From: a virus
Taxonomy: Duplodnaviria > Heunggongvirae > Uroviricota > Caudoviricetes
Direction: 5' to 3' (one strand)
Virus record (IMG/VR): IMGVR_UViG_3300010002_000010
Location: 27,949-91,948 of that record
Length of the DNA stretch: 64,000 nt
The position numbers were made by a program, and so were the translations under genes. Positions 2,303 through 63,637 of this stretch are shown here, piece by piece; positions within the stretch are counted from its first letter, which is position 1; every line of letters starts with the position of its first letter. A model generated the notes under the pieces. The model had not been told where the DNA came from. It searched no databases and saw only the letters and a program-made list of their open reading frames with translations.

Positions 2303-2333
2303 TAAACAAGAGCACTCGCTCTTGTTTTACATA
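2303..2333 (+). terminator. rho-independent terminator after the lysis genes
   Basis: aacaagagc-actc-gctcttgtt hairpin followed by ttttac. Confidence 0.7.
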
Positions 2334-2350
2334 GCTTCTAGCTATTAAAT

Positions 2351-2376
2351 TTACACATACTAGTAATTAATTTACA
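2351..2376 (+). promoter_or_regulatory. sigma-A-like promoter TTTACA-N17-TACAAT for the recombinase gene
   Basis: tttacacatactagtaattaatttacaat read directly. Confidence 0.45.
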
Positions 2377-2411
2377 ATAAATAGCATTATAATATGAGAG
2401 GAAGTAAAATT

Positions 2412-3401
2412 ATGGCAAAGAAACGTAACTCATTTTTTAACGAAGAAACCTATGCGATCGTAAATAAGAAATCAAAGGATATTGTAGAGGATTATAATCT
2501 CGAACTTAAATCAAAAAAGAAAGCGGAGAAAACTATCTATCAGTATATTGCTGATATTAAAATGTTCCTCTGTTATGTTCATGATAATTTTGATGACAAG
2601 TATCTATTGGATCTTAAGAAACGAGACTTCCGCCGGTTCTTCTTGGCTCTTCAAGATTCAGGAGCTTCGTCTGCACGGATCAACCGCGTCCAATGTTCGC
2701 TTCGGAACATCTTAGAATTTTGTATGGAAGACGATGACGAATACGAAGATTACGAAATCAATGTAATGAAATCCGTCAAAGGTTTGGTAAAAGAAGAAGT
2801 CCGCGAAATCCACTTCCTACCAAATGAAGATGTCGAATTGATCCTAGATTATTTGATTGAAAAACAAAAATACCAGCAAGCTTTATACCTGGCAATTAGC
2901 TATGAATCTGCAGGTCGCCGGAATGAAGTACACCAAGTTAAAAAAACGGACTTCCTAGAAAACAACCGAACCAATATTGTTCAAGGTAAACGCGGTAAAA
3001 AATTCTCATTGCTTTATTTTGGTCGATCAAAAGAAATTGCAAAACTGTATTTCGATCAACGCGGTGAGGATAATATTGATTCTCTTTGGGTTTCTGGTGA
3101 AGGTGAAGATCTTCGGCCTGCAAAATATGAAGCTCTTTATAACTGGGTTATCACATTCCGCCGGATCCTATTGCGTTTAACTGGAAAAGATATTGAGTTC
3201 AATCCCCACAGTTTACGGCATACAAGCCTCGAGAATTATTCTGATGGATCCCATTATGTATTAAAAGAATTGGGAAAAGACAAGTTCGATATTAATGTTC
3301 TTCGTCTGATTGCAAACCATTCGGACATCTCGACTACCGCAAATTATTTGAAAAATAAAGATGAAGAAGAACTTAATAACGCTTTTGGTTTTGGATCATA
3401 A
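2412..3401 (+). CDS. tyrosine site-specific recombinase (phage-integrase family); could be an integrase, a Xer-like resolvase or an SPbeta MrpR-like recombinase-fold regulator
   Basis: C-terminal HSLRHTS (HxxR) and a Tyr in STTANYL; start moved to the ATG at 2412, which has RBS gagaggaag (the track ORF begins at 2394). Confidence 0.8.
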   Translation: MAKKRNSFFNEETYAIVNKKSKDIVEDYNLELKSKKKAEKTIYQYIADIKMFLCYVHDNFDDKYLLDLKKRDFRRFFLALQDSGASSARINRVQCSLRNILEFCMEDDDEYEDYEINVMKSVKGLVKEEVREIHFLPNEDVELILDYLIEKQKYQQALYLAISYESAGRRNEVHQVKKTDFLENNRTNIVQGKRGKKFSLLYFGRSKEIAKLYFDQRGEDNIDSLWVSGEGEDLRPAKYEALYNWVITFRRILLRLTGKDIEFNPHSLRHTSLENYSDGSHYVLKELGKDKFDINVLRLIANHSDISTTANYLKNKDEEELNNAFGFGS

Positions 3402-3421
3402 TAAAAAGAGTGGGGTTTCCC
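3391..3421. terminator. bidirectional rho-independent terminator between convergent genes
   Basis: aaagagtggg-gttt-cccactcttt with T-runs on both strands. Confidence 0.7.
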
Positions 3422-3435
3422 ACTCTTTACATAAA

Positions 3436-3918
3436 TCAATCTTTAATTACTGATCTCCAATAATTTTGAGCTGGTGTGTAAACTGGCGGTGTTTCAATTG
3501 TATGGCCAATATCTACTTCCAATTTATTCATGTCAACCGTGGCAGAGAACTCAAAATTATCAATTGTTTCGGTTGAATAATAGTCTGCCTGCGGATAATT
3601 GACAATAAAGATATAACCTTCTGTCTCATTAAACTTAGCAAATTTTTTATCTAATCCGTCACCCACCGCATCTTTCAAAACTGATGGCCCTTTGTTTTTA
3701 AGATCCCATTCATATTTTTCAAGAGCTCTTAAAAGGTCTGTAACCGATTCGTTTGATTTTGCTATATCCTTTGAAATATATTGATAAAGAGCATGGATCA
3801 TTTTTGTAACAGTAACTTTTTCGGTTTTAAAATGGTATTCCTTAATTGAAGCTTCAATCATTTTATTAACGGCATCAACGGCTTCAATAGCTTTCTTACC
3901 TTCAGTGTTATATTTCAT
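3436..3918 (-). CDS. hypothetical protein (160 aa)
   Basis: ORF with RBS gaggagg; 1-nt overlap with the upstream gene. Confidence 0.6.
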   Translation of the reverse strand: MKYNTEGKKAIEAVDAVNKMIEASIKEYHFKTEKVTVTKMIHALYQYISKDIAKSNESVTDLLRALEKYEWDLKNKGPSVLKDAVGDGLDKKFAKFNETEGYIFIVNYPQADYYSTETIDNFEFSATVDMNKLEVDIGHTIETPPVYTPAQNYWRSVIKD

Positions 3919-5286: not shown

Positions 5287-5310
5287 TAAAAAAATCCCAA
5301 TTAAGGGATT

Positions 5311-5637
5311 TTAATTTCTAAGATATTCTTCTTCTTCTAAAATAACATCCCAAACATACGGAGAAACATACAGATTTCTAAATGAGTTATTTCCAATTTT
5401 CTTGAAGATCTGATACCAATATGAGTCTCCTCCGTAAGATAACTTTTCTTGATTTTCAAGAACGGATATTGTATTTGTTATTACAACATTATATGCAAAC
5501 TTGAATAGTTCAGCAGACGTATCAGGTATGAACCAAAGACTTCCGGTCGAAGAAACTAACGTAACCGAATTTTCCGCGAGACATGCGAAGCAAAGATTGT
5601 TGTCATCCAGATATTTAATTTGTTGATCTGTTGTCAT
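5311..5637 (-). CDS. hypothetical protein (108 aa), paralog of 5736-6050
   Basis: N-terminus MTTDQQIKYLDDNNLCFACLAENSVTLV aligns with MKTNQDLQHLVEKNLTFVCVTDTSVTLV. Confidence 0.6.
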   Translation of the reverse strand: MTTDQQIKYLDDNNLCFACLAENSVTLVSSTGSLWFIPDTSAELFKFAYNVVITNTISVLENQEKLSYGGDSYWYQIFKKIGNNSFRNLYVSPYVWDVILEEEEYLRN

Positions 5638-5735: not shown

Positions 5736-6050
5736 TTATTTCATTTTCTTAATTTCTTCGAAGATCTCATGTTTCACGAAGAAGTTATAAATGTTGTCAT
5801 CCCATTTTGTATCTTCTTCAATTTTCATCCAGAAATTATCCAATCCATAATGAGTTATCATATCTTGTTCTTCAAACTCAGAAACAATATTCTCATTGAC
5901 AAGTTTCTGTACGTCTTCAAAAATTGGATTTTCCATTGGGATGTAATACAGATTATCATTTTTTGGAACGAGTGTTACAGATGTATCTGTGACACACACA
6001 AACGTTAAATTTTTTTCTACGAGATGTTGAAGATCTTGATTTGTTTTCAT
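5736..6050 (-). CDS. hypothetical protein (104 aa), paralog of 5311-5637
   Basis: Paralogy read directly from the N-terminal alignment. Confidence 0.6.
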   Translation of the reverse strand: MKTNQDLQHLVEKNLTFVCVTDTSVTLVPKNDNLYYIPMENPIFEDVQKLVNENIVSEFEEQDMITHYGLDNFWMKIEEDTKWDDNIYNFFVKHEIFEEIKKMK

Positions 6051-6526: not shown

Positions 6527-6657
6527 TTTTACACGTCCTTTGTTTTTTTTTGTTTTAATCTTCCTTACATATATAATTATAACATGATCTGCGGGATTTG
6601 TGTTGATTTTATTGAAAATAATTAAAAAAACTTTTTTATTTATTTTTCTAAAAACTA

Positions 6658-6686
6658 TGTACAAAGCCCGTAAATCTTAGTATAAT
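6658..6686 (+). promoter_or_regulatory. plus-strand early promoter TGTACAaagccc-N-TATAAT
   Basis: tgtaca at 6658-6663, 17-nt spacer beginning aagccc, tataat at 6681-6686. Confidence 0.6.
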
Positions 6687-6742
6687 AAATTATAGAGTTA
6701 ATTAACAGCGACTCTAAAAAACTTAGAAACGAGTTGAAAAAA

Positions 6743-6975: not shown

Positions 6976-7612
6976 TTCCCGTTTTTTAAATCTTAAAGTG
7001 CCGTTTTGAAATTGTCAGAATATTCCGAATGTTCCGTTTTTAATGCCGGAAATTTTTTCAATATTCCGAATTTTCGGAATTGTCTGAATATTCATAAAAC
7101 TCGAAGTGCCGTGAATTATCAGAAAATTCTGAATATTCGATCTATTATAATTTTTAAAATATTCTAAATATTCCGACAATTTGAAAACTCGAAAGATTTA
7201 GAATTATCTAAATATTCGAAATTATCTGAACATTCGAAGTTGTCAGAATATTCCGATCATTGTAAATTGTCAGAATATTTCGAATTGATCGACAATTTGG
7301 AATTGTCAGAATATTCAGATCATTCAAAATATTCATAATTTTCCGCCGACGAACCACCGCAAATTATTTTAATATTCCGAATATTACGAATATTCCGACA
7401 ATTCTAAATAGATCGAATTTTCTGAATATTCCGAATAATTTGAATTTTCCGAATTGTCAGACTATTCAGAATTTATTGAATTAACGCCTATGAAAGAATA
7501 TTCCGACAATTCAATTTTTACAATAATCGAAATATTCCGAATATTTTGAAAATTCAAATTGATCGAAAATTCAGAATATTTGTAATATAAAATAACTATT
7601 TTAAAATGTGAA
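6976..7612. repeat. repeat array R1: about 20 copies of the GAATATTC-centred motif (full site approx TTGTCAGAATATTCTGACAA, half-site GAATATTCCGACAATTC) in both orientations
   Basis: Counted directly; contains the variant GTGCCGTGAATT and the GC island CCGCCGACGAACCACCG at 7343-7359. Confidence 0.9.
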
Positions 7613-7621
7613 ATAAAAAAA

Positions 7622-7648
7622 ATGGGATTCTTTCGAATCCCGAATGAT
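7622..7648 (-). terminator. rho-independent terminator for 7656-7907
   Basis: gggattc-tttcg-aatccc with a T-run on the minus strand. Confidence 0.7.
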
Positions 7649-7655
7649 TTGTTTC

Positions 7656-7907
7656 TTAAAGTAAGTTATTCAATTCTTCAACATGTTTTGAAACTCGATT
7701 TGCTTGAAGAATGAAAATTGTCAATCCTTGTGGACTCATTTCATTTTCATGAAACTTAATTACGAAATGATTTGAGATCGGATTGTGAGATAATGTCACT
7801 TCTGAAATCGGATTGTCAAAGTGAAAACGGCCAAACGAATATGTCGCATTTGCATATCCTAATTCTTCAAGTTTTGAAATTACGTTTTGTACTGTTTTGT
7901 AATTCAT
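7656..7907 (-). CDS. hypothetical protein (83 aa), possible helix-turn-helix DNA-binding protein
   Basis: RBS aaaggacg; the N-terminal KTVQNVISKLEELGYANAT segment looks like an HTH (weak). Confidence 0.5.
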   Translation of the reverse strand: MNYKTVQNVISKLEELGYANATYSFGRFHFDNPISEVTLSHNPISNHFVIKFHENEMSPQGLTIFILQANRVSKHVEELNNLL

Positions 7908-8026
7908 TTTTCAACGTCCTTTATTTTGTATTTAAGGTCTTTTGTTTGTCTCAACCTTATATATTAATTATACATCTAAAGCCCACAAAAGTACACAGTT
8001 TTTGGAAATTAAATTGTAAAACTTTT

Positions 8027-8160
8027 AGAAACAATTCTGACAATTTAATATGATCGTGTCAGAATATTCTGACAATTCAAAAAAACTTAATTGTCGGAAT
8101 TTTCAGAATATTAAAACAATGAAGCCGCAATTGTCAGAATTGTTCTAAAAAATAATACAA
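8027..8160. repeat. repeat array R2: about 4 copies of the GAATATTC motif, including the perfect palindrome GTCAGAATATTCTGAC
   Basis: Read directly. Confidence 0.85.
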
Positions 8161-8179
8161 ATTAATTTCCGTAAAACTG

Positions 8180-8208
8180 TGTACAAAGCCCATTTTAAAT
8201 GTTATAAT
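8180..8208 (+). promoter_or_regulatory. plus-strand early promoter TGTACAaagccc-N-TGtTATAAT
   Basis: tgtaca at 8180-8185, tataat at 8203-8208, 17-nt spacer. Confidence 0.65.
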
Positions 8209-8260
8209 ATATATAAGAGGTTAAGTAATTGATCTCAAAAACGAAAAGAGGATGATGAAA

Positions 8261-8434
8261 ATGTTACAAGAAACTGCAAAATGTTTACAAGAACTTTCAG
8301 AAAACGGATTTTACAAATTTGAAAACGAAATGTTCGATTTTGAAAATGTTGTTGAATTAGTAAATCCAATTCTCAAATCTTTGAAAGTTGATTTTGAAGT
8401 AAATAACGAAAAAGAAGAAATCAAAATTTTCTAA
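8261..8434 (+). CDS. hypothetical protein (57 aa)
   Basis: Third in-frame ATG chosen (aagagg RBS, 9-nt spacing); terminator follows at 8436-8465. Confidence 0.5.
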   Translation: MLQETAKCLQELSENGFYKFENEMFDFENVVELVNPILKSLKVDFEVNNEKEEIKIF

Positions 8435-8464
8435 AATGAAAGAGTCGAAAGACTCTTTTCATTT

Positions 8465-8905
8465 TGTTTTCAATTGTCAGACAATTCTGAAAATTCTGAA
8501 TCGATCATTGTTTGAATTTTTGGAATATTCAGACAATTCGAAATATTCAGGAAATTTAGAAAAGTCGTTAAATTCAGAATATTCAGATAATTCAGAATAG
8601 TCGTTAAATTCAGACAATTCAAAATGGCCGCAATATTCGAACAATTCAGAATATTCTGACAATTCGAAATGATCTAAATATTCAGACAATTCAAAATATT
8701 CTGACTAATTAGAATTGGCGCTTAATTCAGAATATTCCGACAATTACGACAATTATGAATATTCTAATAATTCGAAATATTCAGAATTTTCTGATAATTT
8801 GCGGTGGTTCGTCGGCGGGACAAATAGATCGAAGATTGAGAATATTCCGACAATTCAGAATATTGAAAAAATTCACGGCACATTACTCAGAATATTCTGA
8901 CAATT
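8465..8905. repeat. repeat array R3: about 13 copies of the GAATATTC motif; contains TAATTTGCGGTGGTTCGTCGGCGG at 8794-8818
   Basis: Counted directly; the repeat-derived ORFs 8477-8689 and 8715-8900 are artefacts. Confidence 0.9.
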
Positions 8906-8907
8906 CC

Positions 8908-8933
8908 AAAATATAAAAAATCCCAAAATGGGA
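8908..8933 (-). terminator. rho-independent terminator for 8934-9233
   Basis: atccca-aaa-tgggat with a T-run on the minus strand. Confidence 0.7.
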
Positions 8934-9233
8934 TTATTTAAAAGATCTTCTGTATTGAGAAGTGACTTTACGTCTGAGATTTGAGAGCCATGTAGAGTCC
9001 TGTGTCGCTCTGTATGACTCAATAGCATTGTCATAGTCATCTGTATTAACTTCAAAAAAGTAGTGATTTAATACATCTTCATCTGCGACGAGAGCTAGTT
9101 CTTTATGATAGATACTATTTTCTTTTTTGAAAAACCAGATCTCATTTTCTCGTTTTTCAATTTCGTAAAATGCTCCAGAAATGATTGTAGGATTTGTAAT
9201 TGTTTTCATAAGCATAACTATTTTTCGTGGCAT
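8934..9233 (-). CDS. hypothetical protein (~99 aa)
   Basis: Start set to the third ATG (9233), which has 9-nt spacing from aaaaagg. Confidence 0.5.
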   Translation of the reverse strand: MPRKIVMLMKTITNPTIISGAFYEIEKRENEIWFFKKENSIYHKELALVADEDVLNHYFFEVNTDDYDNAIESYRATQDSTWLSNLRRKVTSQYRRSFK

Positions 9234-9360
9234 TTTCATCATCCTTTTTTCTGTATTTTAGATCTGCATGAAACAGCTCATAAGAAAATTGTACTACAAA
9301 ATTTCCGCAATGTACATAGTTTTTAAATAAAAAAAAATAAAAAGAATTTCCATAAAACTA

Positions 9361-9389
9361 TGTACATTTGCGGGAATTACTGTTATAAT
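9361..9389 (+). promoter_or_regulatory. plus-strand early promoter TGTACA-N17-TGtTATAAT
   Basis: tgtaca at 9361-9366, tataat at 9384-9389. Confidence 0.65.
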
Positions 9390-9443
9390 AAATATATAAG
9401 GTTAAGCAATTAATCTTAAATAAAAACGAAATGAGTTGAGAAA

Positions 9444-9686
9444 ATGTTAGTCAAAGAAACAGAGCAAGCTCTGAAAGATCTAATGAAACTTGACAAAGTA
9501 GAATTATTAACAACGAAAGGAAAAATTCAAACTTGGTTCGTGTGTGAAAAAAACGGACAACAAGTCATTCTAAGAACGTTTCACTACATGAGCAATAACA
9601 AAAAGAACGTTTCGATCTGTGAACTAATGACACTTGAAAACGGAAAAACAATTTGGTACCCACGAAAAAAATTCATAAATGTATGA
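9444..9686 (+). CDS. hypothetical protein (80 aa)
   Basis: Conserved leader upstream; terminator at 9688-9716 (aaagagccgcgaggctcttt). Confidence 0.55.
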   Translation: MLVKETEQALKDLMKLDKVELLTTKGKIQTWFVCEKNGQQVILRTFHYMSNNKKNVSICELMTLENGKTIWYPRKKFINV

Positions 9687-9719
9687 AAATGAAAAAGAGC
9701 CGCGAGGCTCTTTTCATTT

Positions 9720-10035
9720 GTCATTTTCAATTGTCGGAATATTCTAAATAATTAGAAAGATCGAAAAATTGAATTGTCAGAATATTCTTTCACAAGCGCT
9801 AATTCACAATATTCTGACAATTCAGAATTGTCATTAAATTCAGAATATTTAGAAAATAAAAAATGTTTTTAGATCATTTTGAATATTCAGATAATTTAAA
9901 ATATTCAAAAGATTGAAAAAATTCGCGGCTCTTAAAACAGAACGTTTTGATAATTCTAAATATTCTGACAATTTCGAATATTCTGAAAATTACGAATATT
10001 CAGAAGATTGAAAAAATTCACAGCACGTTAGCTTT
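9720..10035. repeat. repeat array R4: about 9 copies of the GAATATTC motif
   Basis: Counted directly. Confidence 0.9.
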
Positions 10036-10099
10036 TAAAGATCTAGAAAAAACAACATTATAATAGATAAAAATAATTTAAAGAACTTTTAAAAAAGCT

Positions 10100-10128
10100 A
10101 GCACAAAGCCCGCAGAACGCGTTATAAT
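10100..10128 (+). promoter_or_regulatory. plus-strand early promoter AGCACAaagccc-N-TATAAT
   Basis: Read directly; 17-nt spacer. Confidence 0.55.
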
Positions 10129-10180
10129 ATTATTAAGAGATGAGTTATTGATCTCAAATAAAACGAAATGAGCTGATAAC

Positions 10181-13057: not shown

Positions 13058-15076
13058 TTAAACTACAACTACATATTTCAATTTTCCTTTTCGAGTTGCA
13101 TATACCCCAGTTGCGGTCCGAACAGCGTTTTCTGAGTAATTGCTTGTGTTAAATTCAACTGTCGCTTTGTCTGTAACTAGTTTAAGTGTTGATTCTTTTT
13201 CTAAGAATAATACCGCATGAATTTTTTGCTTTGTATTCAATGCTTTTTTCAAAACCCGTCGATTAAGATCGAAGTGCTTTTTACTCAATCGAGCAACTTT
13301 ATTATTTTCATAAATTGCCATAATTACATTATGAGTATTATCAACAATTCCATACTCAACAATATCAATGGAGTCCTCTTTGGCAAGTGTCGGTAAATAA
13401 GATCCAAGGGCTTTCGGTTTTGTTTCTTCAATTGCAGAAATGTCTACTTTAAAAGCATCTTGCTCTTCATTGAAGATTAAAATAGATCCGCTGTTTTGAG
13501 TGTTGAAGGTTTTTGCAATCTCATCACCAGGCTTTAACGTTGGTTCAATATCTGTTTTGCGGAATTTATAAGCATATCCTTCTGCGGTAAGATGAACCAC
13601 AACGTTATAATCATTTTCAATTTTTGCTTTTTCCGTCATTTTATTTTTGATTTTAAGTTGTTTTTCTTGTGAGATCTCAATGATTTCAGATTGACGGTCA
13701 ACGCCATATTTATCACTTGTTGATTTTAATCCTTGGAGAATTACTTGATTCATTTTTTTAGGATCATCAATGACAGATTGCAATGAGACAATTTTTGCTT
13801 CCATGTCTTCAATATTCTTGACTTGTTTTTCAATATATTCTTTATTGATATTCCGTAATTTCATGTCAGCAACTTTATCGGCCTGTGCCTCATCAATTTC
13901 AAAACGTTTTGCCAATTTTGGAATAATGTCTTTTTCTTTTGAAAAACGGATAATCTCAATGACTTCATCAATATAATCAATGATTTTAGCCATTCCGTAA
14001 AGTAAATGGAGATCGCTTTTTAATTTCTCAATATCATATGTCATTCCGCGAGAAATACAGTTTGCACGCCATTCAAGCCACTTAATAATTGCTGGCCATA
14101 CTCCCATTACTTTAGGAAGCCCGTCAACGATCATATTCATGTTCGCGGGAAATGATGATTGAAGCGGTGTAAGTTGATAAAGTTTTTCAAGAAGCAATTT
14201 CATGTCTGTTCCTTTTCGAGCGGTAAGTGAAATTCGCATCCCTTTAAAACCAGTTAGATCTTTAATATTCGTGACTTCTTTTAATTTTTCTGTTTTGGCC
14301 AATGCCGTAACTTTTTCAATAATAGCTTCGCGGGTAGTTGAATATGGAATTTCCATAATATCAATTTTGTTTTTGTCAATGATTGCTCGGCCTCTAAGTT
14401 GTGTTGATCCATTTCCCATATGATTGATTTGCTCAAAAATTGCCGGATCATTTACAACAAATCCTTTAGTGGCAAAATCTGGAATTAAAATATTTTTTTC
14501 GCCGGTCTTCATATAATTTTCAATTGCTTGAGTAATCTCTTTTAGATTGAATGACGGAATTGAAGACGCAAAACCAACACCTGTTCCTGAGCTTGCATAT
14601 GCTAAAACAGATGGGAATTTTACTGGAAGTACTTCTGGGATCTTCATTGTTCCATCGTAGTTATCAACAAAGTCAACCATATTTTTATTGAAATTTTGCA
14701 TCATTTCAGTTCCAACATCTGATAATTTTACTTCGGAATAACGAGCCGCGGCCGGTGCCAAGTCCCGTGAGGTATTCTGGCCAAATGATCCTTTACCAAT
14801 GATTGTTGGAATTGCATGCCGATCTTTTTGAACCATTTTAACCATTGACTCGTAAGTGTCTGAGTGAGGGTGGATCTTCATTACTTGACCAGAAATATTA
14901 GCAGACTTTGTAAATTTAAATGCTTTTGCGGTAAATAACGTAAATAAGATCCGGCGATGAACAGGTTTCCATCCATCTCGCAGATCAGGAATTGCACGAT
15001 CCAAAAGAACATAAGTTGAATATACGCCCATGTTATCTGTAATAACTTGTGAAGCTTCAAATTCAGTATTAGCCAT
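13058..15076 (-). CDS. type II DNA topoisomerase, DNA-cleavage subunit (GyrA/ParC N-terminal homolog, T4 gp52-like)
   Basis: LLDRAIPDLRDGWKPVHRRILF and active-site AAARYSEV match GyrA signatures; 672 aa, so it lacks the GyrA C-terminal domain. Confidence 0.85.
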   Translation of the reverse strand: MANTEFEASQVITDNMGVYSTYVLLDRAIPDLRDGWKPVHRRILFTLFTAKAFKFTKSANISGQVMKIHPHSDTYESMVKMVQKDRHAIPTIIGKGSFGQNTSRDLAPAAARYSEVKLSDVGTEMMQNFNKNMVDFVDNYDGTMKIPEVLPVKFPSVLAYASSGTGVGFASSIPSFNLKEITQAIENYMKTGEKNILIPDFATKGFVVNDPAIFEQINHMGNGSTQLRGRAIIDKNKIDIMEIPYSTTREAIIEKVTALAKTEKLKEVTNIKDLTGFKGMRISLTARKGTDMKLLLEKLYQLTPLQSSFPANMNMIVDGLPKVMGVWPAIIKWLEWRANCISRGMTYDIEKLKSDLHLLYGMAKIIDYIDEVIEIIRFSKEKDIIPKLAKRFEIDEAQADKVADMKLRNINKEYIEKQVKNIEDMEAKIVSLQSVIDDPKKMNQVILQGLKSTSDKYGVDRQSEIIEISQEKQLKIKNKMTEKAKIENDYNVVVHLTAEGYAYKFRKTDIEPTLKPGDEIAKTFNTQNSGSILIFNEEQDAFKVDISAIEETKPKALGSYLPTLAKEDSIDIVEYGIVDNTHNVIMAIYENNKVARLSKKHFDLNRRVLKKALNTKQKIHAVLFLEKESTLKLVTDKATVEFNTSNYSENAVRTATGVYATRKGKLKYVVVV

Positions 15077-15094
15077 TTTTTTTAATCTCCTCTA

Positions 15095-15125
15095 AAACTA
15101 ATTTCATTACTCTTATATTATACTT
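15095..15125 (-). promoter_or_regulatory. conserved phage promoter (TTTCAT-N16-TATAATATAAgag) for the GyrA-like gene
   Basis: ctcttatattatacttg reverse-complemented; terminator cgacca-aattgc-tggtcg upstream at ~15140-15178. Confidence 0.55.
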
Positions 15126-15179
15126 GTTTTTTAAAAAAATGAAAGAAAAAAGACGACCAAATTGCTGGTCGCCTACGTT

Positions 15180-15593
15180 TTATTTTCCTAGATAAATTTT
15201 GTCATCGGAAATCAAAGTACAGATCCAATCACAAGCCTGATCCAAGGCCTCAACATTTGAAACCGTAAATTTATTCACATTGTGGTTTTTTCTTGGAATG
15301 GTCATAATTAAAGGAGAAAGGTTGCTCATATCATAATCAGCAATAGTTTCAATATAAAAAGTTCCAAGTCCTGTTTTATTCATTCTTAAATGACCAAAAG
15401 TAATCAATGATCCAGCTTCCTTGAAATATATAACGGGTTGACTGGCCGCTAGTTTTGTTACCATATTGCACCGTTGTTCAAAAAGTCTCATTAACAGCTC
15501 GGGGTTTTTAATATTCTCGTTTGTGATCTTTGCCTCTTTCATTACTTTCTCTTCAATTACGATTTCCCTAATCTCTTTTTGTTCTGCCATCAT
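15180..15593 (-). CDS. hypothetical protein (137 aa) between the two topoisomerase subunit genes
   Basis: Its position matches T4 gene 60, but no sequence match was recognised. Confidence 0.45.
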   Translation of the reverse strand: MMAEQKEIREIVIEEKVMKEAKITNENIKNPELLMRLFEQRCNMVTKLAASQPVIYFKEAGSLITFGHLRMNKTGLGTFYIETIADYDMSNLSPLIMTIPRKNHNVNKFTVSNVEALDQACDWICTLISDDKIYLGK

Positions 15594-15740
15594 GTGCTTT
15601 CATCCCTTTCTTATTAAAATAAATTAGGCCAAAATGCCTATATCTATATTTTTATTATACACTCTTTTTACTGTAATGTATATTAATTTGATCTACAATT
15701 TAAAGTTTTTTGCAATATTCTAAAAATAAAAAAGATAGCG

Positions 15741-17681
15741 TCAAATGACGCTATCAATATATTTATTGAGGTTATTAGAGATGAAGGCTTTTCGATTTGT
15801 TACGTCGTCTCCCATCCAGTCGTTGATCGAGGCAATCATTTTTTCTGCATCTTCGACAGTAATCTTAATAAGGTTACGTGTTTCTTTGTTCATCGCAGTT
15901 TCCGCCATTACTTCTGGCTCCAATTCTCCCAATCCTTTTACCCGTGAAATTACATATTTACCTTTGATCTTTGGCAATTCCTTATTTTTTTGTGCATCTG
16001 TATAGAAATAAGTCATGGTATCGTCTTCATGTTTAATTTCATAAAGTGGAGTTTGAGCAATATAAATCAAACCAGCACTTAAAAGGTCAGGCATCAATCG
16101 ATAAATCATTGTAATTATAAGCGAAGCAATATGGGCTCCATCCGCATCAGCGTCCGTCGCAATAATAATTTTACCAAAATTTAACTTTTTAATATCGAAT
16201 GAATCAAGATCTTTGTTTTTCTTGTCGCCTTTAATTCCACAACCAAGGATCTTGATTAAATCAACAATAACTTTGTTTGATAGGATCGTTACATAATCAG
16301 TTTTTAGACAGTTGAGGATTTTACCTTTTAATGGATGAGCCGCCTGGAAAACAGAATCACGTGCTTCAACGATCGAGGTTAAAGCGGAATCTCCTTCAGC
16401 CACGAATAGTTCAGCATCTTTACCATGAATATCACAATCGACAAATTTATCAATTTTGTTTCCGATACCTTCAATTTTCTCGCTTAACTGTTTTTTGAGC
16501 TTTGCTTTTGCTTTATCATTGTTTGAGTTAAATTTTTGAACTTCCAATAAATGAGCAACCATCTTTTTAAATTGTTTTTGATCTTGAATAGAAATTACTT
16601 CCATTAAGCTCTCAACATATTCTTTTGCTTGCTTTTTATAAAGGTCTTTATTTGTGCTCAGTTTTGTTTGGTTAGCAAACTCAACGTTATTTGATTCAGT
16701 AATTGCAAGGAATGAAATTGAAGATTCAACATCCTCTTTCTTAAAAGCAGTTACACCTTTAGGGAATAGTTTATTGTCTCGACAATGTTTATTCATAAAT
16801 AACCGGACACCATCAAGGATCCCATCATTAATTGTTCCACCTTCTTCAAGGAAAGTCATATTCAAGTAACTTTCATGAACGGTTGATGGCATTGTGGCAA
16901 TAAAAATATCAAAAGAGTTTTTCTCTTCAACTAGACCGCCATCGACAACTTGAACCTCAGTAACTTTTTCAACTTTACCAAGATTGAAAATTGGAGAAGT
17001 TGCTTCGTTTGAAATCATTTCTTCAAAATACTGTTTAGACGATTCATATAAAAATTCTTTTTCTTCCCCTTCAAAAGAGAAAATAAATTTAATACCCAAA
17101 GCACCAACCGCAAAATGTTGTACAATCTCTTCAATCAAATGCTTTTCAAATACAGTGTTCGTATAAATTGATTTATCCAAAACAAATGAGAACTTAGATC
17201 CTGTGTAGATTCCGCGGTAATTTGCTTTTGTTAACTCTCCATCTAAATAGCCACCGTTTACAAATTTAATTTTGTGGTGAGTACTGTTATAGAATGAGTC
17301 AACTTCGAATAATTCAGAAGTATAACAAATTGCGGTATTACCAACACCGTTTGTTCCGGTGCTTGCACGATCGGTAACATCATATTTGGTTCCGGCAAAC
17401 AGTGTTAAAAACAATAGTTCATAGTTTGGAATACCATCTGTTTCACCGTCAATTGGAATCCCTCGACCATTATCTTCAACAGTGATCTTTCGCAATTCGC
17501 CGTCATGTTCGCTTAATGTTACTTTTACAGTAGGATCCTGTTGTTTATTATTCCGAAGTTCATCGGCGGCGTTTGCAATTGTTTCTTTGATTGGATGATA
17601 GAAATTATCACGGGATCCAAACCAAATACTTAATTTTTCACGAGCTTGACTTCTGTCATCTAGTTTTCTGATCTTATCCAC
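15741..17681 (-). CDS. type II DNA topoisomerase, ATPase subunit (GyrB/ParE homolog, T4 gp39-like)
   Basis: GHKL ATPase signature (EDNGRGIP) and TOPRIM (AEGDSAL); 646 aa. Confidence 0.85.
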   Translation of the reverse strand: MDKIRKLDDRSQAREKLSIWFGSRDNFYHPIKETIANAADELRNNKQQDPTVKVTLSEHDGELRKITVEDNGRGIPIDGETDGIPNYELLFLTLFAGTKYDVTDRASTGTNGVGNTAICYTSELFEVDSFYNSTHHKIKFVNGGYLDGELTKANYRGIYTGSKFSFVLDKSIYTNTVFEKHLIEEIVQHFAVGALGIKFIFSFEGEEKEFLYESSKQYFEEMISNEATSPIFNLGKVEKVTEVQVVDGGLVEEKNSFDIFIATMPSTVHESYLNMTFLEEGGTINDGILDGVRLFMNKHCRDNKLFPKGVTAFKKEDVESSISFLAITESNNVEFANQTKLSTNKDLYKKQAKEYVESLMEVISIQDQKQFKKMVAHLLEVQKFNSNNDKAKAKLKKQLSEKIEGIGNKIDKFVDCDIHGKDAELFVAEGDSALTSIVEARDSVFQAAHPLKGKILNCLKTDYVTILSNKVIVDLIKILGCGIKGDKKNKDLDSFDIKKLNFGKIIIATDADADGAHIASLIITMIYRLMPDLLSAGLIYIAQTPLYEIKHEDDTMTYFYTDAQKNKELPKIKGKYVISRVKGLGELEPEVMAETAMNKETRNLIKITVEDAEKMIASINDWMGDDVTNRKAFISNNLNKYIDSVI

Positions 17682-22811: not shown

Positions 22812-23438
22812 TTATTCTAAATATGAAGATTTAATAATGTCTTGGAGATGAGTTTTTAAGACTCGAATCCGAGAATGAGCCGCCTGTGTGGTAATGCCCT
22901 TAGCCTCCGCATAATCGACAACGGCATTTTTCTTTCGATCAAGGATCAACTCGAGAAGTTCCTTGTCTTTGTCTTTGATGAGAGCGTTTTCAATAATGGA
23001 CAATAGCTCTTTTCCATCATATGTTGATTCAACTGAATCTGATCCATCAATCAAAAGATCTTGTAACTCATCAGCAGACTCTGCTTCCGAAGTAACAACT
23101 TCTTTATTTAGTGAAATTTCTTTTCCGTGATCTTCTCGTTTTTTAGCTTTTGTTGGCTGAAGCACCTTGTCTCGGGCGCGATTCATTCTGTGGTGTAAGT
23201 AAGTTGAAAAACAATTTCCGGTAGTTGAATCATACCGATCATAGGCTACCCAAAGTTGCAAGAAAAATTCTTGTCGCATGTCTTCTTCATTGTATCGATT
23301 GAAAAACATGTTCTTATTCATATCGTGAACATTTTTCTCAATAAGAGGAATAAACATTTCGTGGACTTCTTCATATGTCAAATCTTTTAAAACTTTCTTG
23401 CCATCTTCCATAATGTAAAGCTTCTTTGTTTGATCCAT
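22812..23438 (-). CDS. sigma-70 family RNA polymerase sigma factor
   Basis: Region 2 (FFLQLWVAYDRYD...FSTYLHHRM) and a C-terminal region 4 HTH (GITTQAAHSRIRVLKTHL). Confidence 0.8.
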   Translation of the reverse strand: MDQTKKLYIMEDGKKVLKDLTYEEVHEMFIPLIEKNVHDMNKNMFFNRYNEEDMRQEFFLQLWVAYDRYDSTTGNCFSTYLHHRMNRARDKVLQPTKAKKREDHGKEISLNKEVVTSEAESADELQDLLIDGSDSVESTYDGKELLSIIENALIKDKDKELLELILDRKKNAVVDYAEAKGITTQAAHSRIRVLKTHLQDIIKSSYLE

Positions 23439-26746: not shown

Positions 26747-27985
26747 TTATTCTTCATTGTACAGTTTGACTTTCTCGCCTTGTAGATAGATTTCTCCATT
26801 TTTCTGGCCAACAATTTTAATCGTGGTATGATTAATAGATGATCCGCGAGTATTTAAAACAAACTCGGCATCCCGTCGGTAACCATTCAAGATCAGTAAT
26901 GTTCCGCGCTCAAACCAGCTAGGATCCAAGACTTCTTTATCTTTTCCTTTTACCTGAACAACTTTTTTATCATAGTGGGCAAAAGTTCCTTTTGTATAAC
27001 GGATTGTGACAACACCATCTTGAGTTAATACAAAGATCAAGCTTTTGGTTTTGTCTTTATCTACTACTGTTCCCGCAATTGTGCTAATTTGATAGTTCGG
27101 GATTTCACGGCCACGCCATTTTTTCCATTCTCGAACAACAGGAACTTCCGGAAGCTCTTCAAATTTGGAAATATTATAAAGGCTTGACAGATCATAATAG
27201 TCCAGTTCATGTTTATGCTTATAATAAAGCAATGTTGACATTTCCCAAGCTTCAATTGATCCCGAGCATTCATCGATCCAAAATTGTTTACGGTTTTTGG
27301 CAGTAAGAATCTGAACAGTTTCAGGTTTTGCTAACCATTCTTTCAGTCGGCCAATACCTTTTTCATAGTATTTCTTGAATGATTTTTCATCAATTACAAG
27401 CTTTCCTTTTTCAAAAGTGTATTCGACATGATCTTTATATTTTGCAATAAATTCATCTTCGATTTCACGAGTCATTACTGCTTTTTTACCGACCGCTTTA
27501 ATTTTGAAATTATACAATTCCAATTCTGGTCCGTATTCTTCTTTATTAATATGATCGATTACATGCGGAAGATTTGCCATTGTCAATTTTGTTTTTGCTG
27601 GTACCGCAATCTTAACAAAATCAATCATTAGTTTTCTGCGGTCTGATTCAAATTCATCAAATGATCCTGACTTAATTAATGTTACAATTTTCTTATTTGA
27701 AATTCCAGATCCCTCAAATGACGTTTTTTCTAAGAAATTCTCAAAAGAAGTATAAGGACGATTAGCAATGACAGTTGCGACAACATCTTTCCCAAGCCCA
27801 ACAATTGGTTTCAATCCAAACAGGATCTTATTCTCTGATTCAAGTGGCGTAAATCCTGGACGAGATTTATTAATATCTGGCGGAAGAACTTCATCTTTAA
27901 TATTTCCGATCGCTTTTGCAATCTTACCATATTTTGTATTAGTTTCTTTTTCACCTGATAATCCTGAGTTTACGGATAAACAAGC
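26747..27985 (-). CDS. dnaE: DNA polymerase III alpha (DnaE)-like polymerase, exon 2 (C-terminal part: ILPPDIN-like motif, HhH, OB region); 5' boundary approximate
   Basis: VLPPDINKS and LKPIVGLGKDVVATVIANRPY align with DnaE fingers/HhH segments; continues the 29046-31538 frame across the intron. Confidence 0.75.
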   Translation of the reverse strand, partial: ACLSVNSGLSGEKETNTKYGKIAKAIGNIKDEVLPPDINKSRPGFTPLESENKILFGLKPIVGLGKDVVATVIANRPYTSFENFLEKTSFEGSGISNKKIVTLIKSGSFDEFESDRRKLMIDFVKIAVPAKTKLTMANLPHVIDHINKEEYGPELELYNFKIKAVGKKAVMTREIEDEFIAKYKDHVEYTFEKGKLVIDEKSFKKYYEKGIGRLKEWLAKPETVQILTAKNRKQFWIDECSGSIEAWEMSTLLYYKHKHELDYYDLSSLYNISKFEELPEVPVVREWKKWRGREIPNYQISTIAGTVVDKDKTKSLIFVLTQDGVVTIRYTKGTFAHYDKKVVQVKGKDKEVLDPSWFERGTLLILNGYRRDAEFVLNTRGSSINHTTIKIVGQKNGEIYLQGEKVKLYNEE

Positions 27986-29045
27986 TGTTTTCCAAAATAC
28001 AGATCCAAAGAGAAGGCAGATATTCATCTCAATCATCAAGATCAAAGTATAGCCCGCAATGTGTGGAAGTGAGAATGCATCATGTGATCCAAATTTTTCA
28101 ATCTGGCATGGACTATATCTTTACAATGCGATCCAATTATTTAAATTTGAAATAGGGCGCCCGTCGAAAGCTATTTGATCTTTGAATATTTACTTCAATA
28201 TGATTCACCCGCTTATTTAACTCTTTCGCGGCTTCATATATATCTGTAAACTCTTTGATTAAAGATCCATCAATGTTAAAATACAAAATTGGTTTTCCAA
28301 CTAATTCTTGTTTGCGGTTTTTAATTCCGCCCACTTTTGCATTTATAGGACATTGTTTTTTACGCTTTTCGCTGGTTCGATTAATCAGTCCATTTTCTGA
28401 AGCATGTTTCATATTGCCCGCGTTATCTGTCCATTCTAAATTTGTATAATGGTTATTTTGTTTATTACCATCTAAATGGTTAACCACATTAAATTTATTA
28501 GGATCCGGGTTTTTAACAAACGTTTCACATACCAGCCGATGAATATATTTCTCAATTGGTCCTAATCTTGTTCTAAAATATCCATTAGGTAATAGAGTTT
28601 GCTTCTCAATTCGTTCTGGCCGTATATACTTTCTTCCGTCTGTTCCAATATGAATATGATTTAATCGTTTTACTTCACCGTTTTCCGAAACTAAAAAATT
28701 TGAATCATCTGCTGTTGTTTTCCATTCCATAAGAAACTCTCCTTATAAATGGATCGCATTGTACTTTGCTCTTCGAATAACGTACCAATAGTTATCCTAC
28801 TCTACTAACTTCCACAATTTCTGTGTGCTTTCGATAGTCTCTACACCTTCAATTAAGCTAGGCACGGTATTATCGGCTACCCATATTTCAGGGTTTAGAT
28901 TCTCTTAGTCAGCGGCTTCGTCTTTTGGTAAATCCTGTCATTTCCTTGTTAGGCTTGGACAGAAGTCTTATTCAACTGATACCGTTAGCATGATCTTAAG
29001 ATCATACACCCCTGGTTGGGTTCACAAAGTTAACGGGCAAGCTAT
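27986..29045 (-). mobile_element. group I intron (approximate bounds) in the polymerase gene, carrying an HNH homing endonuclease ORF
   Basis: ~1.06 kb interruption between aligned DnaE segments (...SYVWTYCLEPQF | ...ACLSVNSG...LPPDIN); ~310-nt GC-richer non-coding block at 28731-29045. Confidence 0.7.
28137..28730 (-). CDS. HNH homing endonuclease (intron-encoded)
   Basis: HNH-type motif ...VNHLDGNKQNNHYTNLEW...; RBS aaggagag. Confidence 0.75.
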   Translation of the reverse strand: MEWKTTADDSNFLVSENGEVKRLNHIHIGTDGRKYIRPERIEKQTLLPNGYFRTRLGPIEKYIHRLVCETFVKNPDPNKFNVVNHLDGNKQNNHYTNLEWTDNAGNMKHASENGLINRTSEKRKKQCPINAKVGGIKNRKQELVGKPILYFNIDGSLIKEFTDIYEAAKELNKRVNHIEVNIQRSNSFRRAPYFKFK

Positions 29046-31538
29046 TCACCCAAATTGTGGTTCTAGGCAATAAGTCCAAACATAGCTTAAGAATAAAACA
29101 CTTGTCCCAAGATCTTTTCCCTGTTCAAAGAATAATTCTTTTTGCTCCGCAATGAGCTCTTTATTCTGTTTAGCTACGGCTTTCCGGAATTTATTGGCTT
29201 GAGTTAATGTGAACCCTGAGATTTTTTGATCCATCGAGATCTCCATAAGACCTTCTTGTGTATCGCAGATTCCGTATCGATCATTTAGGTGGTTAATTAG
29301 AATATTTTTTTCGTCTTCAGTTAAATTATTTTCGTCCATTTCTTTATACCAAAGAGAAATATCATTCTTAAATTCAACATATTTATCGATCGGTTGTTTT
29401 CCTGAAGTTGTTAATCGCATCAATGAGTTACCCGCAGATAATTCATCAAAAGATTGCGGTTTAATTTTGTTCAGTGCACTAATACCAACATTGGTTTCAA
29501 ATTGGAAAGCATTGAATACCTCACCTTTTGCAAGCATTTCGTACATTTGCGGATCTTGCATCTCTAAAACATCTGGATGAAGATATTTTTCATAAGTCTC
29601 CCGCAGAGTACCTTGCCATTCAATTTTACCGTATTCTTCCAATAAAGCCATAGCTTCACGGATCCGCCCAAGTGCATCAACTGAAAGGAAATCTAATTTT
29701 AAACCGCCCAATGCTTCTGTATCTTTTGCATCGAATTGAGTAACCGCTAATCCTTTTGTTGTTTGCATTAATACATTTTGTTCGATATATCCGTTAGGGA
29801 AAATTACAATTCCTGAAGCGTGCTGAGATCGACCAGAAATTAATCCTTCAATTGAAAGCAAAGCATCTCGCAATCCTTCATGACTATCAACCTCATTAAT
29901 AAACTCTTGAACAGGACGGCGTTTTTCTTCTTCGTTTCCAAAGAGACAATCTCGAATTGGCCAGTTTTCTGCTTTTTCTTTTGGAATTAGGTTTGCAATA
30001 TTCATTGCAATATCTTTATCAATATCTAATCCACGGCAAGCAGTTAATACAGATGATCGGGATTTTTCTGTTGTAAATGTTCCCATGTTCAAAACATTTT
30101 CTTCGCCAAACTCTTTTTTAATAAGTTCAACAATTTCCAATCGTTTTGATCCTTCAGTATCAATGTCAATATCTGGCAACTCTACCCGCTCTTTTGACAA
30201 GAAACGCCAGTGAGGAAGTTTATATTTAATTGGGTTGATTTGAACAATATCTAACAAATAGTTTGTGTAATAACAACTTGCTGATCCACGAGAAACTCCG
30301 ACCAGCGAAACTTTCCACATAATATCAACTACTTGCTTTGTTAAGGTAAAGTAAGAAGATAGCGGTTGGTTAAGTGCTTTGGAAATATGCCAGATCTCAT
30401 TTAGCTCGGTATTAATACGATCAAGGTTTTCATGATTGTATTCTTCGTTCCGTCGAACCATTCCCTCTTCAATTAGCTTCAAATAATAACGGTCAACAAG
30501 GTTTGGGCTGTTTTTAAATTCACCAATATAGTTGTATGCAATGGTAAACTTATCAAATGAAGTTGCTTCTGTAAAGTCTGCTGGAATCTTCGTATTTGGA
30601 ACTTTAATTGGCTGATCCAAACTATATGATTCAATTTTGCTTTGGATCTCAATTGTATTTTTTGCCAACACCCGAAGTAGATTATCTGGGAAAAATTCAA
30701 GCAGTTCATCGTATGACATTACATAAGTTGTTCCATAGAATTGATCGACTTCTCGCTCTCCTTCTGAGGCTTGCAAATATGCGCGGTGTTGATCTTGGAA
30801 ACCTTTATTCAAATAATGGGCATCTGTGGCGACAATACATTTCACATTGTACACTTCTGATAATTTCAAAAGCATGCGGTTTGCCGTGTGTTGATCTTTT
30901 TGGTAAGATGGTTGAAGCTCAAAATAGAAATCAGTTCCAAACAAGCCTTTCATCAAAGTAACAAAATCGTGCATTTTCTTTTTTAATTCCTGCGATGGGT
31001 TTTCATCATAAGCAATTAAATATTGCGGTAGTTCTCCACCAACACAAGCAGTAGTTGCGATAAGATCTCCTGAATATTCTTGCATAATTTCATAAAGATC
31101 ATCTTTATATGTTGGAACACGGAACATACCGTTTTGGTAAAATCCATTTTTCCAAGCTTTTGATGATAGGATTTTAAGAGCTTTATAACCGCGTTCATTT
31201 TTAGCAATTAAAATGAAATGAGGATATTTAATTTTAGTGCCGTTTTCGAGGCTATCTTCTACTTTATCACGGTCAAGAAGATAGATCTCATTACCAAGTC
31301 CAATTGAATAATCATCAGGTAATTTACCTGCTTCTTTTTGCTTTTTAACATATTTTAATAATTTTACATGATTTGACAAAGCTTCATGATCGGTGCAAAC
31401 AAACCCCTTCAAACCAATTTCTGCGGTATAATCAACTAACATTGTGATCTTGTTAATCGCATCACGTAGACGGAAATTGCTTGCATCAGAGTGAGAATGT
31501 GTTAAGAAAATATTTTTATATTCTGGCAGTGTATTCAT
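29046..31538 (-). CDS. dnaE: DNA polymerase III alpha (DnaE)-like polymerase, exon 1 (PHP domain plus palm and fingers)
   Basis: PHP motifs HSHSDAS...CTDHE; C-terminal ...LSYVWTYCLEPQF aligns with DnaE ...VSYQTAWLKAHYPAEF; RBS aggagga. Confidence 0.8.
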   Translation of the reverse strand: MNTLPEYKNIFLTHSHSDASNFRLRDAINKITMLVDYTAEIGLKGFVCTDHEALSNHVKLLKYVKKQKEAGKLPDDYSIGLGNEIYLLDRDKVEDSLENGTKIKYPHFILIAKNERGYKALKILSSKAWKNGFYQNGMFRVPTYKDDLYEIMQEYSGDLIATTACVGGELPQYLIAYDENPSQELKKKMHDFVTLMKGLFGTDFYFELQPSYQKDQHTANRMLLKLSEVYNVKCIVATDAHYLNKGFQDQHRAYLQASEGEREVDQFYGTTYVMSYDELLEFFPDNLLRVLAKNTIEIQSKIESYSLDQPIKVPNTKIPADFTEATSFDKFTIAYNYIGEFKNSPNLVDRYYLKLIEEGMVRRNEEYNHENLDRINTELNEIWHISKALNQPLSSYFTLTKQVVDIMWKVSLVGVSRGSASCYYTNYLLDIVQINPIKYKLPHWRFLSKERVELPDIDIDTEGSKRLEIVELIKKEFGEENVLNMGTFTTEKSRSSVLTACRGLDIDKDIAMNIANLIPKEKAENWPIRDCLFGNEEEKRRPVQEFINEVDSHEGLRDALLSIEGLISGRSQHASGIVIFPNGYIEQNVLMQTTKGLAVTQFDAKDTEALGGLKLDFLSVDALGRIREAMALLEEYGKIEWQGTLRETYEKYLHPDVLEMQDPQMYEMLAKGEVFNAFQFETNVGISALNKIKPQSFDELSAGNSLMRLTTSGKQPIDKYVEFKNDISLWYKEMDENNLTEDEKNILINHLNDRYGICDTQEGLMEISMDQKISGFTLTQANKFRKAVAKQNKELIAEQKELFFEQGKDLGTSVLFLSYVWTYCLEPQFG

Positions 31539-63263: not shown

Positions 63264-63285
63264 TTCCTTTCATCTGTATACTTTC

Positions 63286-63316
63286 ATTATACTTGATCTT
63301 TTTAATTAGGAAAGAT
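63286..63316 (-). promoter_or_regulatory. conserved phage promoter variant (TATAATgaaagtatac)
   Basis: ctttcattatacttgatcttttta read directly. Confidence 0.45.
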
Positions 63317-63637
63317 AATTGTCAAAACTTTTAATTTCTTTTACACAGGCAAGCAATGGTCTTTTGCTTGACTGTAACATATCTGAGCTTGCGAGGATAT
63401 GTAATCTCTTGAACTTATACGAGGCAACTTAATATTATATTTAGGATCAGGTTCAAGACATTGTTTCTCAGAAACAAGTTTCTTCGAAAGGGTTAATTTT
63501 TATTATTTTTTTTATTATTTTATTTTTAATCTTATTAATGAGTATATTTAGCCTATATAACTAAAACTTCCTTCGAAAATTAATAACAGCATATTTTAGT
63601 CCTCACTGTTAAACATTGATTAGATCAACATTTTTCT

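Follow-up and report, generated by a model that had tools for sequence, protein, structure and literature searches.

Multimers of the P1 genome are resolved by Cre at lox and those of chromosomes by XerCD at dif, and tyrosine recombination is reversible. Here we report on a tyrosine recombinase gene in a 64,000-nucleotide stretch of phage DNA (Caudoviricetes; positions 27,949 to 91,948 of IMG/VR record IMGVR_UViG_3300010002_000010), the whole of which is referred to as the window. Dimer resolution is the role generally presumed for the Xer-like recombinases that plasmid prophages carry (PMC8026635, PMC7969092), and pBS32, the phage-plasmid of Bacillus subtilis NCIB 3610, has related phages (PMC7969092). 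In phage SPbeta, the repressor MrpR/YopR has a tyrosine-recombinase fold with three of the seven catalytic residues, performs no recombination and binds the repeat element SPBRE, and the phage integrates by means of the serine recombinase SprA (PMC10516654).

An earlier note on the window had considered an integrase, a resolvase and a catalytically silent MrpR-like regulator, and had leaned toward the last; its account of MrpR/YopR and the repeated element was accurate. We found that the protein carries a full catalytic set and is predicted to be an active recombinase, and that its gene holds a fixed position in a clade of phages and phage-plasmids. We put at about even the chance that the enzyme resolves or interconverts multimers of the circular phage genome, in the manner of Cre or Xer, and is not an integrase.

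Results

A predicted active recombinase of the simple type

The open reading frame (ORF) at 2412-3401 (+) encodes 329 residues and lies directly 3' of the VanY/PG_binding_1 endolysin gene (1467-2258), as the earlier note had described. Pfam identified PF00589 (2e-10) and an N-terminal SAM-like core-binding domain (SAM_1), both above their cut-offs, and PHROGs grouped the protein with integrases. The best NCBIfam matches were XerC (62 bits against a cut-off of 335), XerA (59 against 220) and XerD (35 against 330), so that the protein fell short of all three equivalog models. In a sequence search of the Protein Data Bank (PDB) the single sequence had no match, and a profile matched just two Xer-like chains. 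The AlphaFold2 (AF2) model, built from 21 relatives (predicted local distance difference test score 84), consisted of a helical core-binding domain, an acidic linker and a catalytic domain, and began straight at the core-binding domain, without an extra N-terminal arm-binding domain. Foldseek matched the model at probability 1.0 to IntI, XerA, XerH, Tn1549 Int, Cre and lambda Int, the last match being limited to the core.

Aligned with Escherichia coli XerD, residues R169, E172, K193, H266, R269, H303 and Y312 corresponded to R148, E151, K172, H244, R247, H270 and Y279. The comparison with characterised recombinases that the earlier note had proposed therefore gave seven of seven catalytic residues, and its description of a full-length protein with an HxxR motif (HSLR, H266 to R269) and a tyrosine in STTANYL (Y312) was borne out. 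All seven were invariant in a 22-sequence alignment (58-86% identity). In a set of 126 sequences reaching down to 49% identity, 124 retained all of them; of the other two, one had an R169M substitution and one an aberrant C-terminus. The ratio of non-synonymous to synonymous substitution rates (dN/dS) against the closest relative was 0.078, with dS near saturation. A family-specific insertion of about 16 residues lies between R269 and H303; within it G279 and H281 were invariant in the 126 relatives, and L284 and G288 were present in at least 90%. The putative DNA-contact residues of the SARINRVQCSLRN helix (R89, N91, R92 and R98) were likewise invariant in the 126 relatives, and six more positions of this motif (S86, I90, V93-S96, N99) were kept in at least 90% of them. 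By its ordered catalytic set and modeled two-domain fold, the protein is assigned to the tyrosine recombinase superfamily. Because of the fold, the full and conserved catalytic set and the purifying selection, we predict a two-domain 'simple' (Xer/Cre-type), catalytically competent tyrosine recombinase that is active as an enzyme.

The profile of the recombinase family was compared with two SPbeta proteins. Against YopR, hhalign gave a probability of 0.8%, and PDB entry 8A0A, used as the test of YopR homology, was not matched by sequence and was not among the top 50 Foldseek matches. Against YomM, the probability was 99.1% (E 8e-19, 288 columns, 28% identity), and yomM stands at the end of the SPbeta tail operon, a position equivalent to that of the recombinase. 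In YomM (7302-8303 of SPbeta sequence L154), HxxK replaces HxxR and the tyrosine is shifted by one residue; YomM may for that reason be impaired, so that MrpR may not be the only degenerate protein of recombinase fold in SPbeta. As SPbeta integrates through SprA, YomM is not its integrase. No literature on yomM was found under the gene name.

A core gene of phages and phage-plasmids

By tblastn the recombinase gene was found in 132 phage records, many of which annotate it as an integrase. Identity was 65% in Geobacillus phage GR1, 57% in the Enterococcus phages VPE25, VFW and nattely (Andrewesvirinae), 50-58% in the Staphylococcus phages SEP9, 6ec and SA2, 47-50% in Lactobacillus phages, about 40% in temperate phages of the B. 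cereus group, and about 25% in Lactococcus 949-like phages and SPbeta. An orthologue was also present in 63 PLSDB plasmids, 61 of them from Bacillus and all typed as non-mobilizable (41 of the 63 at 60% identity or more); the 40 listed measured 82.9-85.8 kb. The pBS32 orthologue (WP_020846125, annotated 'site-specific integrase') was 66.6% identical.

The order tail genes, holin/endolysin, recombinase, and convergent small early genes back to the type II topoisomerase subunits was common to GR1, VPE25, pBS32 and SEP9, and recurred in isolate contigs of Staphylococcus equorum and Priestia megaterium. The rest of the window was colinear with pBS32 and GR1. Its genes encode topoisomerase A and B subunits, thymidine kinase, a SigN-like sigma factor, RusA, guanylate kinase, dUTPase, Pol III alpha, RNase H, RecJ, DnaB, ribonucleotide reductase, DHFR, ThyA and ligase. 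Judged by sequence, the topoisomerase II subunits, RusA and the Pol III-type replisome are the equipment of a circular replicon. Since the same gene occupies the same position in phage-plasmids and in phages reported to be strictly lytic, we regard the recombinase, on these sequence comparisons, as a positionally fixed core gene of a Bacillota siphovirus/phage-plasmid clade with genomes of about 75-100 kb, to which pBS32, GR1, VPE25, SEP9/6ec and the Lactobacillus phages belong.

Both pBS32 and GR1 have genes for a Rep protein, for an actin-like protein of partition and for the toxin MazF. No homologue of pBS32 RepN, AlfA, AlfB, RapP or MazF was found in the window, and the window's phage may therefore be purely lytic. 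A second, short (181-185 residues) tyrosine-recombinase-like gene lies near a 3D-domain gene in pBS32 (L026 44718-45275) and GR1 (L028 3545-4090), and has no homologue in the window. The phage collection held no DNA-level match for the window's phage. A SigN homologue in VPE25 has been noted (PMC6751061); regarding the function of the recombinase of pBS32, VPE25 or SEP9, the literature yielded only remarks that an integrase-like gene is present.

Transcription signals of the locus

The lysis cassette upstream of the recombinase comprises an M23 peptidase gene (300-947), genes for small membrane proteins, and the endolysin gene. The ATG at 2412 is the likely start of the recombinase, because it follows a ribosome-binding site (RBS) and the proteins of relatives begin with MAK(K)RN. 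The gene has its own TTTACA-N17-TACAAT site, as proposed earlier. In the closest relative, L024 (recombinase 86% identical), this site was 100% conserved and the stretch from the upstream hairpin to the ATG was nearly identical, whereas the adjoining endolysin coding DNA had diverged, which argues for a functional promoter region. The upstream hairpin had a counterpart ahead of the recombinase gene in 18 related loci. A small dyad between hairpin and promoter, the sole dyad adjoining the gene, was kept in L024 save for one spacer base. Its length does not suffice for a tyrosine-recombinase core site, and it may be an operator.

Of the bidirectional terminator described in the earlier note, the fold was found on both strands; the terminator scan scored the minus strand, the plus strand having only a short T run. 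The octamer TTTACATA occurs directly 3' of both hairpins flanking the recombinase, at 2326-2333 and 3426-3433, in direct orientation. With 6 copies in the window where 5.2 are expected, it showed no enrichment, and (T)TACATA-like motifs also follow the upstream hairpin in VPE25, L016, L018 and L019. The features are collected in Table 1.

Table 1. Coordinates of the recombinase locus and of the repeat region in the window
Feature	Position	Strand	Basis or remark
Terminator-type hairpin closing the late (tail-lysis) operon, upstream of the recombinase	2304-2327	+	RNA fold -12.9 kcal/mol, z -5.1
Small dyad ATAGCT-TCT-AGCTAT, between terminator and promoter-like site	2331-2345	.	read from sequence
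Sigma-A-type promoter-like site TTTACA-N17-TACAAT, recombinase gene	2350-2378	+	consensus scan, 10/12 matches
RBS GAGAGGAAG, 7 nt before ATG	2396-2404	+	sequence
Recombinase coding sequence	2412-3401	+	Pfam, PHROG, NCBIfam, AF2, Foldseek, XerD alignment, dN/dS
Core-binding domain, about residues 11-106	2442-2729	+	
Acidic low-confidence linker	residues 107-136		
Catalytic domain, about residues 138-324	2823-3383	+	
Codon of R169	2916-2918		
Codon of E172	2925-2927		
Codon of K193	2988-2990		
Codon of H266	3207-3209		
Codon of R269	3216-3218		
Codon of H303	3318-3320		
Codon of Y312	3345-3347		
Hairpin common to the recombinase and the convergent early gene 3436-3918 (-), candidate bidirectional terminator	3405-3428	.	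-15.7 kcal/mol on both strands, z about -4.9
Array blocks	7003-7590, 8054-8150, 8465-8910, 9720-10020		counterpart in L024 at 14177-16870
Promoter-like element TTTCCRTAAAACTRTGTACAAAGCCC...TGTTATAAT	6644-6690, 8166-8212, 9347-9393, 10090-10130	+	
Promoter-like element TTTCCRTAAAACTRTGTACAAAGCCC...TGTTATAAT	7950-8002	-	

Repeat arrays and the 25-bp inverted pair

Both of the candidate targets of the recombinase that the earlier note had named, the arrays and the inverted pair (7343/8794), do exist. The window has 27 copies of GAATATTC, whereas 2.7 would be expected over its full length; 21 of the copies fall in 7018-10001. The arrays repeat every 9 bp, consist of the units AATATTCNG, ACAATTCNG and AATTTTCTG, and form four blocks between small promoter-gene-terminator cassettes. 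Each small early cassette has a hairpin terminator at its end, followed by an array; a promoter-like element with an extended -10 stands ahead of each cassette, on both strands. The arrays were present only in the window and L024, and were absent from the corresponding regions of GR1, VPE25 and pBS32. Because they are lineage-specific while the putative DNA-contact residues are conserved throughout, the arrays are not the conserved target of the recombinase family.

When the whole window was matched to the CodY consensus AATTTTCWGAAAATT with at most 3 mismatches, 52 of the 67 matches fell in 7010-10009, and 34 of 51 successive spacings were multiples of 9. Pairs of CodY-like sites offset by exactly 9 bp were almost confined to this interval (34 of 35). 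CodY sites typically overlap by 6 nt, a 9-nt offset, and the protein binds cooperatively and can reach higher oligomers (PMC10415144). The sequences fit runs of overlapping candidate CodY boxes better than a recombinase site, and the arrays could possibly serve as a CodY sponge or place the early cassettes under nutrient-state control. They seem to us more unusual than the recombinase.

The 25-mer CCGCCGACGAACCACCGCAAATTAT forms a perfect GC-rich inverted pair, 7343-7367 (+) and 8794-8818 (-), inside the AT-rich arrays. It bounds a 1.48-kb segment with two divergent small genes, 7656-7907 (-) and 8252-8434 (+). The 25-mer was absent from L024, which has the same gene order, and was not found in IMG/VR. 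A metagenome scan with a form shortened to 18 nt gave at least 120 matches, apparently by chance, and the extended 22-mer was in none of them. Three independent assemblies (the window, L159 and L160) were colinear and 100% identical over this region, and the flipped form was not seen. The 25-mer was rejected as a recombinase site on its absence from L024 and IMG/VR and the lack of inversion in the three assemblies. It may be part of an inverted duplication, because the arrays of the segment together form a large imperfect palindrome.

Integrated copies

Among the best 120 protein clusters no contig exceeded 101 kb, and many of their contigs, bacterial isolates included, were whole elements of 71-101 kb. 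A pattern-based chromosome scan that covered 185,579 species, each by a single genome, gave one match only, a 232-residue fragment lacking the catalytic C-terminus in the chromosome of Bacillus testis. The fragment (L006 6001-6699) is N-terminal and 65% identical, and is surrounded by ordinary genes of the chromosome, without further phage genes in the vicinity. The integrated form that the earlier note had suggested seeking in host chromosomes was thus not found in either search. No Xis, repressor, helix-turn-helix protein or other lysogeny gene was recognised among the ORFs neighboring the recombinase. Intergenic DNA beside the gene held only a terminator and an RBS in 18 loci, in agreement with the earlier remark that no obvious attP lies there.

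Other features of the window

Two tandem paralogous small genes are at 5311-5637 and 5736-6050 (-). Of the independent Logan contigs, L022 and L023 end at window position 5310 and L159 ends at 6116. Because these ends bracket the two paralogues, they are probably assembly breaks, and 5310 was rejected as a genome end. The Pol III alpha gene seems split, with an HNH endonuclease ORF between its parts (26747-28045, 28137-28730 and 29046-31538, -), as does the gene for the ribonucleotide reductase large subunit, with a GIY-YIG endonuclease ORF (46487-47419, 47674-48240 and 48362-49783, -); both splits resemble intron/intein-type insertions in SEP9. The sigma factor (22812-23438, -) is 35% identical to pBS32 SigN. 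The published pBS32 SigN promoter consensus ATTTACGTTT...CAGATATAA was not found in the window; its promoter specificity therefore probably differs, and a SigN-type promoter upstream of the recombinase was rejected.

A non-coding region, 63264-64000, lies upstream of the long minus-strand gene arm. It holds the dyads GCATTTGTAAA-GGTCA-TTTACAAATAC (63907) and ACAGGCAAGCA-N9-TGCTTGACTGT (63345), AT-rich tandem repeats (63496-63536), one CodY-like unit (63942) and a 25-nt poly-T at the window end. By these elements it is a possible control or origin region.

Discussion

In the mechanism that we propose, the recombinase would be transcribed alone from a sigma-A-like promoter between two terminators, at the point of convergence of the late (tail-lysis) and early/replication arms. 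The enzyme would act site-specifically on the phage's own circular replicating genome and resolve dimers and multimers arising by homologous recombination during theta replication; because recombination is reversible, monomers and multimers might also be interconverted. The proposal follows from the combination of a simple, predicted active recombinase with its own promoter, a fixed place at the convergence of the arms, the replicon genes of the window and the sharing of the gene with low-copy plasmids. A circular extrachromosomal state has been seen for relatives, as pBS32-type plasmids and whole-element isolate contigs. We infer a circular replicative form for the window's phage, and likewise that the phage genome is the substrate and multimer resolution the outcome. 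That the SPbeta homologue YomM coexists with a true integrase, SprA, was counted in favor of this reading. Resolvase, one of the three options in the earlier note, comes closest to it; the other two, integrase and MrpR-like regulator, found no support.

Several points weigh against multimer resolution, above all the search for a recombination site. The site sought was of the Cre/lox type, about 28-34 bp long with a 6-8 bp spacer between its two inverted arms; such a site is carried by the replicon of the recombinase and usually lies near the gene. The intergenic DNA beside the gene held no dyad site in any of the 18 loci. Dyad scans combined with matching across genomes, whether strict (11-bp arms) or loose (12-bp arms), gave only terminators and AT-rich noise; blastn-short of the window's intergenic regions found nothing shared with pBS32, GR1 and VPE25; and every non-coding 12-mer common to four complete genomes proved to be a ribosome-binding site. 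No conserved dyad or 12-mer was found across the window, pBS32, GR1, VPE25 and SEP9, in searches that AT-rich or asymmetric sites could escape and with a window that is part of a genome. Furthermore, a purely lytic phage may have no need of dimer resolution, and the relatives 6ec and SEP9 use cos packaging, which needs concatemers and not monomers. Homologues of about 40% identity occur in temperate B. cereus-group phages, lysogeny of SA2 has been reported in one paper from polymerase chain reaction (PCR) only (PMC6787349), and our literature search found no experiment on any member of the family.

The retention of the gene in phages reported to be obligately lytic, the concatemers that cos packaging requires and the reversibility of the reaction would all suit another role in the lytic cycle, namely building multimers from monomer circles for packaging, or acting on host DNA (e.g. 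dif) during takeover. Against such a role stand the lack of a recombination site and the fact that these phages encode RecA/Sak4-like proteins and RusA, which are able to make and process multimers; we think it rather unlikely. Making packaging substrates in the lytic cycle nevertheless overlaps mechanistically with resolution, and is a live variant of the same idea. A related possibility, which we hold tentatively, is an essential lytic-cycle 'Xer' that works with the phage type II topoisomerase and RusA on the topology of the theta genome, resolving multimers or building them for cos, at an unrecognised type of site that dyad searches miss. A classical integrase would instead insert the phage genome into a chromosomal attB, with attP elsewhere than beside the gene and with rare or host-specific lysogeny. 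Many records annotate homologues as integrases, identity is about 40% to the recombinases of temperate B. cereus-group phages and 'prophage LambdaBa02', a truncated copy sits in the B. testis chromosome, and SA2 has been called lysogenic. The SA2 evidence was PCR on resistant colonies (PMC6787349), a result that episomal carriage would also give; a Southern blot for integrated copies of VPE25 was negative (PMC4999554), and 6ec is lytic despite carrying the gene (PMC4125762). Of the features of a lambda-type integrase, none was found: the AF2 model and the Foldseek matches had no arm-binding domain, no attP-like dyad lay beside the gene in the 18 loci, no Xis/recombination directionality factor or repressor was recognised in the neighborhood, and the species-representative scan gave no integrated prophage. 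The complete replicons with an orthologue were plasmids, and no contig of the best 120 clusters was longer than 101 kb. Because of the missing integrated forms and lysogeny genes, the VPE25 blot and the plasmid and whole-element relatives, we consider a classical integrase improbable.

A regulator of the MrpR/YopR kind, controlling the early genes through binding to the GAATATTC arrays or the 25-mer, has in its favor that recombinase-fold repressors are known in SPbeta-group phages (PMC10516654), and that both the arrays and the perfect inverted pair lie 3.6-6.6 kb from the gene. The protein, however, has all seven catalytic residues under strong purifying selection, against three in MrpR, and no similarity to YopR. 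GR1, VPE25 and pBS32 are without arrays although R89, N91, R92 and R98 are invariant in 126 relatives, the 25-mer is missing from the 86% relative, and the arrays match the CodY consensus in 9-bp register. With conserved catalysis, no relationship to YopR and no co-occurring repeat element, the reading as a catalytically silent MrpR-type repressor was rejected, and we give regulation through the arrays or the 25-mer very little credence; catalysis and an additional autoregulatory role are not mutually exclusive. Just as improbable, in our estimate, is a role as a DNA invertase acting on the 1.48-kb segment 7343-8818. The idea suggests itself because the recombinase gene lies about 4 kb from a perfect 25-bp inverted repeat that is GC-rich amid AT-rich DNA, and JGI contig L160 starts 8 bp outside one of the repeats. 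Yet the 25-mer is missing from the closest relative, with its 86% identical recombinase and same gene order, the three assemblies show one orientation, the segment is a large imperfect palindrome of arrays, and the recombinase is conserved in genomes without such a segment.

The family itself is already known, with annotated members in considerably more than 100 phage and plasmid records, and the link of the gene to pBS32 and VPE25 was foreshadowed in the literature. The main value of the analysis is that the MrpR and integrase readings are removed and a testable maintenance role is stated. Several candidates for phage therapy among the VPE25-like Enterococcus and SEP9/6ec-like Staphylococcus phages have been flagged as possibly temperate solely for the 'integrase' gene. 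If the gene encodes a genome-maintenance recombinase shared with pBS32-type phage-plasmids, the safety reading of these phages would change and the strong selection on the gene in lytic phages would be accounted for. Episomal carriage is at the same time a real possibility for the clade, since close relatives persist as plasmids in Bacillus, Priestia and Staphylococcus isolates. The target site, once found, would provide a new recombinase/site pair for genome engineering in Gram-positive bacteria.

Compared with known systems, MrpR shares only the general fold with the recombinase; it is without four of the seven catalytic residues, the sequence relationship is undetectable, and no element comparable to the SPBRE bound by MrpR travels with the recombinase. 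YomM is homologous and equivalent in position, and differs by its HxxK and shifted tyrosine. Cre of P1 is, like the recombinase, a simple two-domain enzyme of a phage/phage-plasmid of about 90 kb, with a template modeling (TM) score of about 0.6 and the role proposed here. The two are about 13-15% identical, Cre has W315 where the recombinase has H303, and loxP lies within about 0.4 kb of cre; for the recombinase, searches near the gene and elsewhere found no lox-like site. The Xer proteins (XerC/XerD, XerA, XerH, XerS) gave the best family matches, with catalytic residues one to one with XerD and structural matches to XerA and XerH; the recombinase differs from them in its scores of 35-62 bits against cut-offs of 220-335, its insertion of about 16 residues and its phage-borne gene, and no dif-like site was found. 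pBS32 and GR1 differ from the window in their extra plasmid genes (Rep, actin-like partition, MazF) and their second short recombinase. Along their full length, the orthologues of pBS32, GR1, VPE25, SEP9 and 6ec are nonetheless 50-67% identical to the recombinase of the window, and they agree with it in size, in catalytic set and in following the lysis genes where the late and early arms converge.

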